From an uncultured Acidobacteriota bacterium (lineage in GTDB: Bacteria; Acidobacteriota; JAQAZP01), in contig CAWIIB010000001.1 in assembly GCA_963836075.1 (NCBI GenBank), positions 800,001 through 864,000 on the forward strand: a stretch of DNA of 64,000 bases. The letters are read 5' to 3'. The notes below the pieces were generated by a model. It did not search any database. It had not been told where the DNA came from and was given only the letters and a program-made list of their open reading frames with translations. Shown here piece by piece: positions 15,374 to 25,104 of this stretch (position 1 is the stretch's first letter; each line of letters opens with the position of its first letter). The translations under genes were made by a program, and so were the position numbers.

Positions 15374-17353
15374 TCAGCGCTCGGTCTCCCAGCCGAGGGC
15401 GATGCGGTCGAGGAGGTGTTTTTCATAGGCATCGCAACGGCCGTCCTCGTGGAAGAAAAGGCGGGCGGTCTCGAAGAGGACCATGGCCTGCCGCTCGTCG
15501 GCGCCCAGGTCCTCGGCCACGTGGCGGTAATGGGTGAACAGCTCCAGCCCGGACACGGCGTCCGACAGCTGGGGCACCGCGGCCACCAGCCGGGCATGGT
15601 CCCAGACGTCGCCGGCCCACAGCCGGCCGGCCAGAGGAACGGTGGTCCCGCCGGGGGCGGCGTTGGTCAGGGTCTTCAGGCCGCCCAGACGGGGCAGCAT
15701 CCGGCCCGGTCCCTTGATCTGCGCCGAACGCCAGAACCAGCGGTTCCACTCCCAGGAGCGTCCCCCCTCGGCCCGCAGGGCCCAGATGGGCAGGTCCGGC
15801 TCCATGGGCGAATAGTAGGTGCCGAGGCGGAGATAACGGCCCTCGGGGTCGTGCCAGAGGAAGAGGGTCTCCTCCACGGGATGCTGGGGATCCTCCGGCC
15901 GCCGCCACCCCTCCACCAGCCGCCAACCGCCGGGAACCCGGCCGGCAAAGGTGACAAAACCATCGGCTCTCGATTCAACGGCCCGCACCAGCCCCTCACC
16001 CCAGTGTGCGCTGCGCCGCAACAGACCTGGTTTACGGACCGCCCCCAACACCGTGTCGGGCCAGCAATTGAACAACAACTGCAGGGCCGTCAGCCCGAGC
16101 AGTGTTGCAGAGGCAAACCGGCGGAGACCGCGCTTGCCAGTCGCTGCGGTCCCGCCGGACCGGATCAGCCCGTCCCAGGCCGCGCCCAGCAGCGGGGAGA
16201 GGGCCAGGCAGAGGCCGAACAGCGGTTCCACTGCGTATCGGCCGGCAAATGCGCCATAGACCAGGATGGGCAGCCCGGCCGCGGCGGACCAGGCCAGCCC
16301 CACGGTTACTGTCCGACCGCCGCTGAGAAAGGCAACGGCCAGGAGCACAGCCAGCAGGGTCACGTGAAAAATCCCCCCGGGAAGGAACAGCAGAAGCAGT
16401 GCCGCCAGGGCCAGGACCGTCATTCCGGCGCGGCCGCCGGCCACGGACAGCCCTTTCCCTTCCGGCGCCGGGCGGAGCAGTGCCAGGGGCAGCAGCAGGA
16501 ACCAGGCCAGGCTTTTCAGCACAGTTCCGGCCTGGACGAGGAAGGTGATCCAAACCAGCTGGAAAGTGAGCGACAGGTCGGCGAGGGCGACCCCGCCACC
16601 GGAGCGGGCCCGGAAGGACGGGATGGCCCAGAGGAGCACAGAGAGTCCGAGGTAAAAGAGCGCCGGACCGAAACGCTCCCAACGGCCGCGTCGCGGCCCG
16701 CCCCCCGCAGCCGCCGCGGCCAGCACCACGGGAATGACAAAAAGCTCGGTTTCCCTGGTGAACAGCGCGGCCAGCAGCAGGGGGAAACCGAGGAACAGGC
16801 CTGCCCGTTTCCCGTCGATCATGAACCAGAAGGTCAGCCGCAGGCCAGCAGCAGCCAGCAGCAGGCCCAGGGCCAGGTTGAGATGGCTGGTCCAGGCCAA
16901 CAGGCCGGCCACCGGCGGGCAGGAGATGAAGAGCAGCGCAGAAAGGGCACCGCCGATGGTACTTCCGGAAAGATAGCCGGCCAGTTCGGCCAGCAGGGCG
17001 GCCAGCAGCACCAGCAACAGCAGGAGAACGGTCTGGTATGCTGCCGGATTCTCCCCCAGACCAACATAGAGCAGAACACGGAAGAGGTTGGTCACCGGTC
17101 TGCCGGGATGAACGTGGGAAAAATGATCTCCTGGGGAAACCGCAGCGAGAACCAGACGGCCGGGAAAACCCGCCCCGGACCCGTCAGGCGCCTCGGATGC
17201 CGTCTGCACCACGTGACGGCAGAAAGCCAGGTGTCCGAAATCGTCAACGCGAAAATAGATCTCGTCGGGCCTGACCGCACTGAGCAGGAAGAATGCCGCC
17301 AGAGCCGTAATGATCACTGCCGCTGCCCTGGACCGCCACATGCCTCTGTTCAT
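15374..17353 (-). CDS. Polytopic membrane protein, GT-C-like glycosyltransferase
   Basis: TM1 followed by 'FRVDD' (acidic loop) and 'RP', about 12 TM helices, 'LFTRE', periplasmic C-terminal domain. Confidence 0.6.
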   Translation of the reverse strand: MNRGMWRSRAAAVIITALAAFFLLSAVRPDEIYFRVDDFGHLAFCRHVVQTASEAPDGSGAGFPGRLVLAAVSPGDHFSHVHPGRPVTNLFRVLLYVGLGENPAAYQTVLLLLLVLLAALLAELAGYLSGSTIGGALSALLFISCPPVAGLLAWTSHLNLALGLLLAAAGLRLTFWFMIDGKRAGLFLGFPLLLAALFTRETELFVIPVVLAAAAAGGGPRRGRWERFGPALFYLGLSVLLWAIPSFRARSGGGVALADLSLTFQLVWITFLVQAGTVLKSLAWFLLLPLALLRPAPEGKGLSVAGGRAGMTVLALAALLLLFLPGGIFHVTLLAVLLAVAFLSGGRTVTVGLAWSAAAGLPILVYGAFAGRYAVEPLFGLCLALSPLLGAAWDGLIRSGGTAATGKRGLRRFASATLLGLTALQLLFNCWPDTVLGAVRKPGLLRRSAHWGEGLVRAVESRADGFVTFAGRVPGGWRLVEGWRRPEDPQHPVEETLFLWHDPEGRYLRLGTYYSPMEPDLPIWALRAEGGRSWEWNRWFWRSAQIKGPGRMLPRLGGLKTLTNAAPGGTTVPLAGRLWAGDVWDHARLVAAVPQLSDAVSGLELFTHYRHVAEDLGADERQAMVLFETARLFFHEDGRCDAYEKHLLDRIALGWETER

Positions 17354-17420
17354 CTACCGTTCACCATTGGTGAAAAGTCTATTTTGGCAACCCGGGCAGC
17401 GGGCCGTCCAGACCCGTGCC

Positions 17421-17449
17421 TTGACAATAACTATTGTGTAATCTATATT
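17421..17449 (+). promoter_or_regulatory. Sigma70 promoter driving the long leader and the KamA-family gene
   Basis: TTGACA-N17-TATATT. Confidence 0.75.
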
Positions 17450-17471
17450 TAGTGTAACCGTAAATAGTGTT

Positions 17472-17720
17472 CAGGGCAACGGTACGCGTTGAAATTCTCC
17501 GGAGTCACCAATGGTGAGTCCGGAATGTGCGGATTAACGGTCCCGTCGGCTTCGGGTTATAGATTATGACAATCTTCCGAGTCCAGACGGCCCTATCCCG
17601 GCTGCGGAACCGCCAGATGATGCCCAGTTATTGGTATCCCGCCCGTTCATGATCGATACCCGAGACAGGGATCCCGGGTATCCGGGATCGTATTGACGAT
17701 CCACTCGATCGGGCGATACA
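17472..17720 (+). ncRNA. Candidate structured cis-regulatory RNA (riboswitch-like 5' leader)
   Basis: Nested stems: GGGCA/TGCCC closing 17474-17625, TCCGGAGTCACC/GGTGAGTCCGGA, CCGTC/GACGG, AGATT/AATCT; second domain 17634-17719 (CGCCC/GGGCG, TACCCG/CGGGTA, GGATCGT/ACGATCC). No credible ORF. Confidence 0.55.
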
Positions 17721-17854
17721 TCACAACATTTTCAGATCCACACCATCCTGGAAGAGGATTCCTTATCCCGGGGGGTGAAATCGACAATTTAAATCGATCA
17801 ACTGCCGGTCTTCATGGATCATGAGACCCTGATCATTTACGTAAAAAGACCCTC

Positions 17855-19006
17855 ATGAGCACAAAATATATCGCCAGTCTCGCGGCAGTTCAGCATCTCG
17901 GCGAAGAGGAAAAACGCGTTCTGCAACAAGTGGTGAACCGGTTCTCGTTCCAGGCCAGTGAACATTACCTCTCGCTGATCGACTGGGATGACCCGGACGA
18001 CCCCATCCGACGGCTGATCGTGCCCGATCTCCATGAACTTCACGCGTGGGGCCGTCTGGATGCCTCCAACGAACAGGACCACACGGTCATCCCCGGCCTG
18101 CAGCACAAATACAATTCCACTGCCCTGCTGCTGGCCAGCAACACCTGCGGCGGGAAATGCCGATACTGTTTCCGCAAGCGGATCTTTCTCGACAGCCGCA
18201 AGGACCAGCTGCGCGATCTCACCGGCGCAGTGGACTATCTGCGGCGTCACCGGGAGATCACCAATGTGCTGATCACCGGAGGCGATCCGCTGACCCTGCC
18301 CCCGTCCCGGCTTGAATCGATAATCGGCCGGCTGATGGACATCGACCACATCCGGATCATCCGCATCGGGACCAAGATGCTCGCTTTCGACCCGTTCCGC
18401 GTGGTGGAAGATCCTTCCCTGCCGGAACTGATCCGGCAGGTGATCATCCGGGGGAAACAGATCTACATCATGAATCACTTCGACCATCCGCGGGAAGTTA
18501 CCGAGCCGTCGGTGGAAGGAATCAGGATGCTGAGCCAGGCCGGTGCGGTGCTGCTCAATCAGACCCCGCTGATCCGGGGGATCAACGATTCCCCGACAGT
18601 GCTGGCCGACCTGTTCAGCGGTCTGGCCGCGTTGGGTGTCAGTCCATACTACGTTTTCCAGTGCCGCCCGGCCCTGGGCAACAAGCCGTATTCGGTTCCC
18701 GTGGAAGAGGGCTACCGGATTTTCGATGCCGCCAAGTCGATGGTCTCCGGCCTGGCCAAACAGGCACGTCTCGTCATGTCCCATGCCGAGGGCAAGATCG
18801 AAGTGGTGGGGAAGACTGACCGTCACATCTTCTTCAAGTTCCACCGTGCTGCCGTTGATCTGGACAGCGGGCAATTCATGATTCGCCGCTGCAATCCCCA
18901 CGCCCACTGGTTCGATGACTATGAGCGGCCTGGATTGCCGGCCCCGGCCCCGGGCCGCTACCTGGAAGGCGGCTATGCTCACCGGGCCCAGGCCAGCCTG
19001 GCCTGA
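17855..19006 (+). CDS. KamA-family radical SAM/PLP 2,3-aminomutase (substrate uncertain)
   Basis: 'GLQHKY', CxxxCxxC 'CGGKCRYCFRK', 'LITGGDPL', 'NQTPLIRGIND', 'PYYVFQC', 'MSHAEGKIE'. Confidence 0.92.
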   Translation: MSTKYIASLAAVQHLGEEEKRVLQQVVNRFSFQASEHYLSLIDWDDPDDPIRRLIVPDLHELHAWGRLDASNEQDHTVIPGLQHKYNSTALLLASNTCGGKCRYCFRKRIFLDSRKDQLRDLTGAVDYLRRHREITNVLITGGDPLTLPPSRLESIIGRLMDIDHIRIIRIGTKMLAFDPFRVVEDPSLPELIRQVIIRGKQIYIMNHFDHPREVTEPSVEGIRMLSQAGAVLLNQTPLIRGINDSPTVLADLFSGLAALGVSPYYVFQCRPALGNKPYSVPVEEGYRIFDAAKSMVSGLAKQARLVMSHAEGKIEVVGKTDRHIFFKFHRAAVDLDSGQFMIRRCNPHAHWFDDYERPGLPAPAPGRYLEGGYAHRAQASLA

Positions 19007-19024
19007 CCACCCCCGCCGGGAAAG

Positions 19025-19053
19025 TTGATTCGCCGCCACTGATGTGGTAGATT
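19025..19053 (+). promoter_or_regulatory. Putative sigma70 promoter for the GT2/GT-C operon
   Basis: TTGATT-N17-TAGATT with extended -10 TG. Confidence 0.45.
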
Positions 19054-19130
19054 CTGGCTCGCGTCAAAAGTCCTTTGTTTTGAACAATCAACATTGACCA
19101 GCACCCGCTGTCGGCCCTAAAGGCACCATT

Positions 19131-23455: not shown

Positions 23456-25104
23456 ATGGAGCCGGAACTGCCGGAAAACCGGGAAGCGGAAGAGAACGAC
23501 ATCTACCAGGGGGAATGGCCCCCGACCGCTGGAGGGCCGGCGGGCAGGGGGTTCGCCTCCTCGGCCACGGCCCTGACGCTGGTGCTGGTCCTGATCATTG
23601 CCGCGGGAGCCGGGCTGCGTCTCTTCCGCCTGGGACAGAAAAGTCTCTGGGTGGACGAGGCGATCAGTTGCGCGCTGGCCTCCACCGGCCACGATCCGGT
23701 GGAACTCCCCCCGCTCTATTTCCGGTTGCTGGGACTGACCATGGAGCTGGCGGGCAGCGAGGAGGAGTGGGCGCTGCGTCTGCTCTCGGCCCTCTGCGGT
23801 ATCGCCGCCATTCCACTGGTCTTCCTGCTGGGCCGCGAGGCCGATGACCGCTGGACCGGTGCCGCGGCCGCCCTCATTCTGGCCCTCTCCCCCTACCACG
23901 TCCAGATCTCCCAGGAAGCGAGGAATTACGCCCTGCTTTCCCTGCTGGCGCTGCTATTCTTCCTGCTTCAAACAGTGGCCCGCCGGCGGCGGGGCGCCAT
24001 CTCCGTGCTGGCCTGGGCCGCTTCCGCGCCGGGTACTGGCCGCGGCCCTCTACACCCACCACCTGGCCGTGCTGCTGATCCCGGCCACTCTCCTGCCCCT
24101 GCTGGCCGGGGATCCGTCCCGCCGCCGCCGGGCCCTGGCGTCCTGGGCCGCCGCCCTGGCCCTGGGAACGCTGATCTACCTGCCCCAGTTGCCGCGCACC
24201 ATTGAACAGGTGCGGTTCCACGCCCGGGTGGGCCGGATGGTGGAGGGCCAGCAGCCGGAGGCCGCCCGGTTGGCGCCGCCCGGTCCGGCGGCACGGGTCA
24301 AACCGGCACTGCGCAAGGCCGCCGGCTCCCTCTACTACATGGGAGCCGGCTACCGCTACACCGACCTCTCCGGCGACGGTCTGCGGGAAGCCATGGGCCG
24401 CTACCCCGACCGGCTGCTTTTGCCGGCCTATGTCCTGCTGCCCCTGGGGGCGGCGCTGCTGGGGCTTTTGCTGCTCTGGCGGGACGATCGGCGGGGCATG
24501 GCGGCCCTGCTGGGCGGCACCCTGCTCATCGTGGTCGCTTTCGGTGCGCTGGAGGGGTCACCGGCGAACCACCTGGCCCAGGCCTTCCCCTGCCTGGTGG
24601 TGCTGATGGCCGCCGGTATTCGCGGCCGCGGATCCCTGGCCGTTCCCGCCGTGGCCCTGCTGCTCCTCTCGGGGCTCTACCTCCTGGCCCTGGTGGGATA
24701 CTTCCGCGAGGATACCTACCTGATGCACCGCGAGAACTGGCGGGAGGCCGGAGCTTATCTGGCGCGGGAAGCGGGCCCCGACGACGCCGTGTTCGTCCAC
24801 GGCGGGCGGAACGGCTATTTTGCCGCCAGCTACTACTACCACGGCCCGGCGCCGGTGAGCTGTTACCTCGACGCAGGACCAGCTCTTCTCCCCGTTCTTC
24901 AAAGAAGAGCTGGCCCCGTTTCACATTCCGGACCACATCCGCTCGCTGGCGGCCAGCCACCGGCGGGTCTGGTTCCTCTACCCTGACTGGGGATCGGTGC
25001 AGCGGCAGGGTGAGCTGACCGGCTTGAACCGCGAACTGCTGGTCAAGGCCAGGAATTTCGGCGAGGACCTCTATCTCTACCAGTATCAGTCCCCCACCCC
25101 GTAA
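23456..25104 (+). CDS. GT-C (GT39-like) membrane glycosyltransferase; two apparent frameshifts (~24033, ~24865)
   Basis: 'SLWVDEA', 'PPLYF', 'SQEARNYA'; continues in frame 2 'AALYTHH...ENWREAGAYL' and in frame 3 '...RRVWFLY...LYLYQYQSPTP*'. Confidence 0.75.

Follow-up and report, generated by a model that had tools for sequence, protein, structure and literature searches.

A lineage-restricted candidate cis-regulatory leader upstream of a KamA-like aminomutase gene in uncultured sediment Acidobacteriota

The region considered here is a leader of about 400 nucleotides (nt) that lies ahead of a gene for a KamA-family radical S-adenosylmethionine (SAM) aminomutase-like protein, within a 64-kb stretch of DNA (the window) from the 6.2-Mb genome of an uncultured Acidobacteriota bacterium. 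Several described RNAs and gene arrangements come close to it. The lysine riboswitch (L-box) forms a large multi-helix junction and controls genes of lysine metabolism, in some Firmicutes genes of the kamA type. In the 'excludon' type of arrangement, divergent neighbours have promoters that lie beyond each other, and their 5' untranslated regions are mutually antisense. The eps-associated RNA (EAR) and other processive-antitermination leaders are structured RNAs of polysaccharide operons. The ldcC motif is an orphan motif held in Rfam. According to excerpts of its description, ldcC is a single bulged hairpin with a possible pseudoknot and highly conserved nucleotides, is found in Firmicutes and two Spirochaetes, and lies upstream of decarboxylase or polyamine genes (PMC5737381). 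For KamA-family genes, excerpts of a second report describe tandem Na+ (DUF1646 motif) and c-di-AMP riboswitches before a Dehalobacter gene (ablA) for lysine-2,3-aminomutase, and Na+ riboswitches before eam (beta-glutamate) genes as well (PMC9337991).

The leader shares with the Dehalobacter tandem, as excerpted, a structured leader of more than one domain before a KamA-family aminomutase gene, and in both cases the host lives in saline sediment, a setting in which enzymes of this kind produce osmolytes. It differs in matching no Rfam family, those two included, in having glycosyltransferase and membrane-protein neighbours and no osmolyte acetyltransferase, and in an enzyme that carries Arg at the position of Asp293 of lysine 2,3-aminomutase. 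With the lysine riboswitch it has in common a large multi-helix junction linked to a kamA-type gene, but that riboswitch gave no match at E<=10 and the enzyme here is without the lysine-binding Asp. A first reading of the window, made from the sequence alone, had likened the leader loosely to ldcC. Both are orphan cis-regulatory candidates upstream of amino acid or polyamine enzymes, but the comparison does not hold beyond this point. The ldcC motif is described as a bulged hairpin of Firmicutes and Spirochaetes (PMC5737381), unlike this two-domain RNA, in which multibranch domains of about 160 and 90 nt precede a radical SAM aminomutase gene in Acidobacteriota. As in an excludon, oppositely oriented neighbours would have transcription units that overlap head-to-head; the overlap here, however, is predicted from promoter-like sites, and one partner adds two conserved folded domains. 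As with EAR, a structured RNA is found in a polysaccharide or glycan operon, but it has no Rfam match and tracks KamA, not the glycosyltransferases, which are retained by a congener that lacks KamA. Antitermination by a NusG paralogue was considered and rejected; the genome has one NusG-family gene, which makes a dedicated paralogue unlikely.

The sequence-only reading could not assign the leader to a known riboswitch class, and covariance-model searches agree. With Rfam 15 at gathering score, no match was obtained anywhere in the 64-kb window, the lysine riboswitch included. At E<=10, positions 17300-17950 gave only a chance snoRNA match of 11.6 bits on the other strand, and the L002 and L004 leaders gave nine chance matches. 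None of these was consistent with the leader; one, at 17.8 bits, was on the other strand. Full-text searches of the literature on aminomutase-linked riboswitch candidates and on Acidobacteria and ldcC turned up no description of this particular leader; supplements, which lay outside this scope, might list further motifs. The leader is a new, narrow, KamA-specific cis-regulatory candidate, unclassified in Rfam. Judging from modelled folds and from its relatives, the likeliest reading is a leader RNA that is specific to KamA and regulates in cis, with the putative promoter of the neighbouring gene embedded in it, so that folding of the RNA and head-on interference between the promoters may both be at work.

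Distribution of the leader and of its two promoter-like sites

The comparison covered the genome of the window (G000), two congeners (G001 and G002) and three metagenome loci (L003, L004 and L005); the GTDB class of the host holds three species genomes in all. A BLAST search of 61 genomes with positions 17380-17860 as the query found the leader only in G000 and G002, in single copy and always before the KamA gene. When metagenomes were scanned with the KamA protein, 169 relatives turned up and 80 were retained. Three of them are close, with amino acid (aa) identities of 82% (L003), 77% (L004) and 80% (L005, which has no upstream DNA), and the remaining kept relatives are 48-60% identical. Since the L003 leader is the same as that of G002, there are three distinct sequences, those of G000, G002 and L004. 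Profile searches gave the same picture. Over 90 loci, nhmmer matched only G000, G002 (twice), L003 and L004, and the covariance models R1 and R2, run over 84 loci, found only L003 and L004, the next best E-values being 0.079 and 1.1. A pattern scan of genome contigs returned 78 stretches, of which R1 confirmed a single one belonging to a G002 record (L130, 173.3 bits, with a secondary match of 15.7 bits on its opposite strand). A further 15 matches to R1 were weak (12.2-20.9 bits, E 0.0039-0.94) and came from GC-rich genomes that had been pre-selected for holding a piece of the model. The leader region is confined to a few related uncultured sediment bacteria, which make up three lineages of one genus.

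Two promoter-like sites are conserved in the region. Both qualify as putative sigma-70-type promoters, with hexamers 16-18 nt apart and conservation in relatives. The first, P(+), was anticipated by the sequence-only reading as a consensus promoter about 400 nt before the ATG, and it is present at the same place in the other lineages, as TTGACA-17-TATACT in G002 and TTGACA-17-TATATT in L004. It scores 11/12 in all three, with an activity that is predicted from sequence and a transcription start predicted near 17456. Within 17200-18000 of G000 it is the sole promoter-like site that the scan found, where the mean for shuffled sequences is 0.8. The second site, P(-), lies on the opposite strand inside the first folded domain and is predicted to drive the divergent gene for the membrane protein. 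Four lineages preserve it, reading TGGACT-18-TATAAC in G000, TGGACT-18-TATAAT in G002, TGGACG-18-TATAAT in L004 and TGGACT-17-TATAAT in G001. It scores 10/12 in the last three; in G000 it ends in C and was missed by the scan rule for that reason.

The congener G001 is a natural deletion control. No KamA orthologue was found in it, the best KamA-family match being 39% identical and placed elsewhere in the genome. It preserves the membrane-protein gene (74% identical in aa; the G002 orthologue is 77% identical) divergent from a family-2 glycosyltransferase (GT2) gene (79%), with a gap of 358 nt between them. This gap gave no match to the covariance models of either domain and no similarity to positions 17591-17854 of G000 (z = 0.2); over a 41-nt stretch adjoining the membrane gene, homology is still clear (z = 8.9). 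At the place of P(+), the alignment by eye shows TTGATG and TGTAAG, and no site was called on the KamA side; P(+) appears to have decayed. The only promoter-like site within the G001 intergenic region is P(-), which points at the membrane gene. The link between leader and aminomutase that had been proposed from the sequence is upheld by this genome, which lacks KamA, both domains and the plus-strand promoter and has kept the flanking genes. The leader and P(+) co-occur with KamA, and P(-) persists without it. By its sequence context P(-) would serve the membrane gene, and it is preserved whether KamA is present or not; P(+), H2-H3 and domain 2 appear to be retained only alongside KamA.

The DNA next to the GT2 gene of G001 matches the spacer between KamA and GT2 in G000 (19024-19091; local score 96 against a shuffle mean of 15.5). 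This 68-nt stretch of the spacer has about 87% identity with the DNA that immediately precedes GT2 in G001, and it may be a promoter or leader belonging to the glycosyltransferase operon itself. In that case the KamA leader may act on KamA and on no other gene.

The pairing of two promoter-like sites gives rise to an explanation at the level of DNA, in which the region would hold two convergent promoters of one design plus operators, with antisense overlap only, and the folds would be incidental. P(+) and P(-) have a common extended -10 element, the 10-mer TAATCTATAW (17439-17448 and 17557-17566), which is rare in the genome, with 4 copies in 6.2 Mb (2 for the reversed control). The two copies in the leader are inverted and 118 nt apart. 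The others, at 159149-159158 and 1927565-1927574 of G000 contig C9, are A/T-rich and upstream of open reading frames (ORFs) by eye, and the 10-mer may mark a small promoter class or the site of a shared regulator. Promoter-like sites are enriched in the region (G002 and L004 show 3, where 0.2-0.4 would be expected), and P(-) is conserved in four lineages. A possible operator is the inverted repeat CCGGG..CCGGG within 17669-17688. Moreover, both strands fold about equally well and covariation is not significant, as described below. Other observations do not suit this explanation. A hairpin of the first domain (H3) changes three pairs on both sides in L004 and yet remains a hairpin, unlike a protein operator. 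Domain 2 lies about 180-270 nt downstream of P(+), an unusual position for an operator. Domain 2 also lies upstream of P(-) but is missing in G001, which means that it is dispensable for P(-) and so serves KamA. No regulator gene was found among the scanned neighbours of the leader. Control by DNA signals alone deserves some weight but is unlikely.

Folding, conservation and strand

The two domains are conserved, and they fold similarly in each lineage. The 416-nt leader has a minimum free energy (MFE) of -144.5 kcal/mol (z = -2.98, with 1 of 100 shuffles as good), its opposite strand has z = -2.26, and domains 1 and 2 taken jointly have sense z-scores of -2.53 in G000 and -2.99 in L004. Domain 1 consists of an outer helix (P1), a small hairpin, H3, the long hairpin H5 and a small hairpin at 17598-17607 (Table 1). 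P1 pairs GGGC with GCCC (17474-17477 with 17622-17625). Being invariant, it is uninformative on structure either way. H3 is the best-supported helix. Of its 27 positions, 12 differ between L004 and G000, and even so L004 keeps a 10-bp stem, with a one-base register shift and, by eye, three pairs changed on both sides; in G002 one pair is changed on both sides and two are broken. In H5 the 3' arm GTCCAG is invariant and the 5' arm is variable. The consensus of domain 2 has 26 pairs, one closing pair of which changes from C-G to U-A.

The architecture proposed from the sequence alone can be traced in these folds in large part. The multibranch domain closed by GGGC/GCCC is present in the single-sequence MFE structures of G000 and L004 and missing from that of G002. 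The three-way domain behind it was recovered in every lineage, and a hairpin near the start region is predicted at 17796-17834. As for the linkers that had looked conserved, CCGGCTG.GGAACCGC is invariant in the three lineages, whereas GCGGATTAACGGTCCC is kept only between G000 and G002.

Downstream of the domains, conservation is poor. At an aligned place in the linker, a hairpin with a run of 5-6 U behind it is seen in G002 and L004 but not in G000. The hairpin immediately before the ribosome-binding region is closed by GATC-type pairs which, like the GATCAT that comes next, are invariant in the three lineages, and its interior varies. Hairpins precede the start codon in all three lineages, and no shared alternative pairing was established among them.

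The conserved part ends sharply near 17735, and both domains are far better conserved than the neighbouring non-coding DNA. Such an edge would also suit an independent small RNA about 270 nt long, of either sense or antisense orientation, in place of a leader. On the antisense strand an 8-bp helix closes the entire conserved block, and L004 and G002 have their hairpin-plus-U-run sites after it. An RNA of this kind is very improbable, since on the antisense strand no promoter-like site stands before the block, domain 2 of G000 is followed by no terminator, and the block was lost along with KamA in G001.

The leader does not appear to be coding. No upstream ATG frame of at least 8 codons is common to the three lineages, and a 1-nt indel shifts the frame across invariant nucleotides, as in non-coding DNA. 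One frame invites the idea of a translation-gated attenuator, in which a leader peptide of 11 codons at about 17615-17650 would span the junction of domains 1 and 2, and the closing helices would be melted by its translation. This frame, M-(M/K)-P-S-..-P-A-R-S-stop, stays open in the three lineages, its stop is preserved as TGA or TAA, and three changes fall at third positions. The start in G002, however, is CTG and not ATG, no clear Shine-Dalgarno sequence is seen, and no other upstream frame is common to the three lineages. Substitutions fall mostly at codon position 2 (5 of 8 between G000 and G002, 4 of 6 between G000 and L004), the opposite of a coding pattern. Attenuation of this type is highly unlikely.

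Several results weigh against a functional leader RNA read on the sense strand. The leaders of orthologous genes, whose collection the sequence-only reading had called for, are conserved and foldable in three lineages, but covariation is not significant. Among 66 consensus pairs, 5 are changed on both sides, and with three sequences such double changes were reached by 100 of 500 shuffles for domain 1 and by 63 of 500 for domain 2. Domain 1 has non-standard pairs in 14 of its 120 cells and domain 2 in 9 of its 78 (23 of 198 in total). The sense z-scores of domain 1 are -2.10 in G000 and -3.24 in L004, and in G002 the domain folds no better than shuffles (z = -0.50). For domain 2 each of the three lineages has a better z-score on the antisense strand (-2.58, -4.64 and -2.83) than on the sense strand (-2.18, -2.14 and -1.03), and of the two consensus folds the antisense one is stronger (-74.4 against -66.5 kcal/mol). 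Counts of G-U against A-C (9:7 in domain 1, 1:2 in domain 2) do not separate the strands. The domains clearly exceed the four-fold degenerate sites of KamA in only two of six comparisons (p = 2.6e-4 and 9.1e-4; p = 0.046 to 0.44 in the others). The best-conserved block of domain 1 is accounted for by a DNA function, and P(-) of G000 has a weak -10 element (TATAAC). Only the position of P(+), right where the conserved block has its 5' edge, favours the sense strand. The structural support for the leader is suggestive only.

The overlap of P(-) with domain 1 bears on how the conserved blocks are to be read. P(-) coincides with the loop and 3' arm of H5, a block that contains the longest invariant runs of the domain. 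On its sequence, the best-conserved "loop" of domain 1 would be the promoter of the divergent gene and not a ligand-binding element of an RNA.

Parts of the leader occur in sequencing runs from sediment and salt marsh, among which no RNA run appeared. Contigs from four runs that aligned to the leader showed few variants. In a salt-marsh run, one low-depth contig joins 17502 to 17595 and skips 92 nt. The gap (17503-17594) covers half of H3, H5 and P(-), and may reflect a naturally occurring deletion, replacement by divergent sequence or an artefact of the assembly.

Table 1. Positions of the leader features and adjoining genes in the window, with identities among the three lineages (G000, G002 and L004).
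Feature	Position	Strand	Description	Identity
Divergent membrane-protein gene	15374-17353	-	659 aa, multi-pass; no Pfam match	
P(+)	17421-17449	+	sigma-70-type promoter, TTGACA-17-TATATT; score 11/12	33/35, 30/35, 29/35
Domain 1	17470-17630	+	multibranch; RNAalifold consensus of 40 pairs	129/161, 108/161, 107/161 (80, 67, 66%)
H3	17498-17524	+	hairpin, 10-12 bp; in the MFE of all three lineages	
H5	17544-17589	+	hairpin; in the MFE of all three lineages, registers shifted	
P(-)	17556-17585	-	predicted promoter of the divergent membrane-protein gene	
Domain 2	17632-17722	+	three-way junction, about 91 nt; in the MFE of all three lineages	69, 80, 69% (17631-17722 as scored)
Linker	17723-17795	+	poorly conserved; imperfect hairpin 17741-17777, small A/U-rich hairpin 17780-17798	31/68, 21/68, 27/65 (46, 31, 42%; 17723-17790)
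Hairpin upstream of the ribosome-binding region	17796-17834	+	predicted fold, closed by GATCA/TGATC	
Last 64 nt before the start codon				57, 42, 39%
KamA-family radical SAM aminomutase-like gene	17855-19006	+	383 aa; TIGR00238 above cut-off	
Four-fold degenerate sites of KamA				67.5, 64.1, 59.9%

The aminomutase, its glycan context and possible ligands

The KamA-like protein belongs to the KamA family, with 209.9 bits for TIGR00238 against a cut-off of 199.2. It reached no equivalog cut-off and passed only the general family model; for the lysine 2,3-aminomutase equivalog TIGR03820 it scored 201.6 bits where 525.4 are required. The C-R-Y-C motif region, which stands for the CxxxCxxC motif, aligns with the cluster cysteines of lysine 2,3-aminomutase (2a5h_A), and the alignment preserves the Arg that binds the alpha-carboxylate in 2A5H. 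In the latter enzyme, Asp293 and Asp330 are the pair that binds the lysine side chain. In the KamA-like protein, Arg is aligned at the position of Asp293, as it is in all 14 of the aligned relatives (motif F-Q-C-R-P), and the Asp330 region, which falls beyond the HMMER alignment, reads M-S-H by eye. Arg in place of Asp293 makes a basic substrate unlikely. The suggestion of the sequence-only reading that the leader senses a basic amino acid or a polyamine is disfavoured on the same ground.

The leader lies in a gap of 500 nt between the divergent membrane-protein gene, whose place in L004 is occupied by a 663-aa ORF, and the KamA gene. On the 3' side of KamA stand a GT2 gene, a gene for a 635-aa membrane protein with no Pfam match, and genes for PMT_2/ArnT-like membrane glycosyltransferases. 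Among these, a 249-aa ORF (23456-24205) carries the N-terminal half of a PMT_2/STT3-like domain and overlaps a 380-aa ORF (23844-24986) in a different frame; the two look like a single GT-C-type gene split by a frameshift. In both of the two loci examined among the relatives of 48-60% identity, the upstream neighbour of KamA is a Bac_transf sugar transferase, which in one of them is preceded by a DegT aminotransferase, with an unannotated protein of about 420-450 aa after KamA. From these neighbours, the KamA subfamily would belong to glycan biosynthesis and not to osmolyte or lysine metabolism. It occurs in polysaccharide gene clusters of many sediment bacteria (subfamily loci noted: L008, L011, L012, L015, L017, L031, L040, L050, L067, L071, L076 and L082). 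By its sequence, the Arg-bearing subfamily may be an uncharacterised aminomutase of glycan biosynthesis.

A metabolite-binding riboswitch is the explanation that the sequence-only reading put forward. One or both domains would be an aptamer whose small-molecule ligand has a link to the aminomutase, and the ligand would switch the downstream hairpins. The long structured leader behind a conserved promoter, its restriction to genomes with KamA, the conserved junction strands, the variation of at least one stem (H3) with pairing kept, and the variable region where an expression platform would lie are all consistent with this. KamA-family genes are also known riboswitch targets, as in the Na+/c-di-AMP tandem described in excerpts of PMC9337991. 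These points are opposed by the lack of a match to any Rfam class, by covariation that is not significant in only three lineages, and by z-scores and consensus energies that do not settle the strand. No consistent terminator or sequestering helix is common to the three lineages, the largest conserved unpaired block is a predicted promoter for the other strand, and the basic ligands put forward so far fit poorly with Arg at the Asp293 position. On balance a metabolite-binding riboswitch is rather improbable.

A more specific form of the idea can be drawn up, in which domain 1, domain 2 or both would be the aptamer of a new riboswitch class that senses the substrate or product of KamA and is wired head-to-head with the promoter of the membrane gene. 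The active-site Arg would then suggest an amino acid whose side chain is anionic, such as a beta-glutamate-like one. Such a compound could decorate envelope glycans, the partner could be a membrane glycosyltransferase-like gene, and one signal could set both genes. This scenario is quite improbable.

Proposed mechanism and significance

In our judgement it is an even call whether these roughly 400 nt are a cis-regulatory 5' leader, specific to the lineage, that is part of the KamA-like gene's control and acts in the way set out here. In the proposed mechanism, transcription would start at the conserved P(+). Provided that the sense strand is the active one, the RNA would fold into its two conserved domains, and these would set the formation of the fast-evolving hairpins downstream, namely the terminator-like stem at about 17741-17777 and the stem adjacent to the ribosome-binding site. 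The downstream hairpins would decide whether KamA is read through in transcription or is translated. Candidates for the effector are a metabolite, a protein or an antisense transcript. In addition, P(-) is placed within domain 1, facing P(+), owing to which the two transcripts would overlap head-to-head over roughly 17456-17550. The firing of either promoter should interfere with the other.

The narrow distribution of the leader keeps its practical importance modest for now. The embedded P(-) carries a more general caution for riboswitch searches, namely that "conserved unpaired RNA blocks" of long leaders can be DNA signals of the other strand. If the region is a true functional leader RNA, it would be a regulatory RNA so far unclassified, from a class of sediment Acidobacteriota that has hardly been sampled, and it would provide a handle on the product of an uncharacterised aminomutase subfamily.

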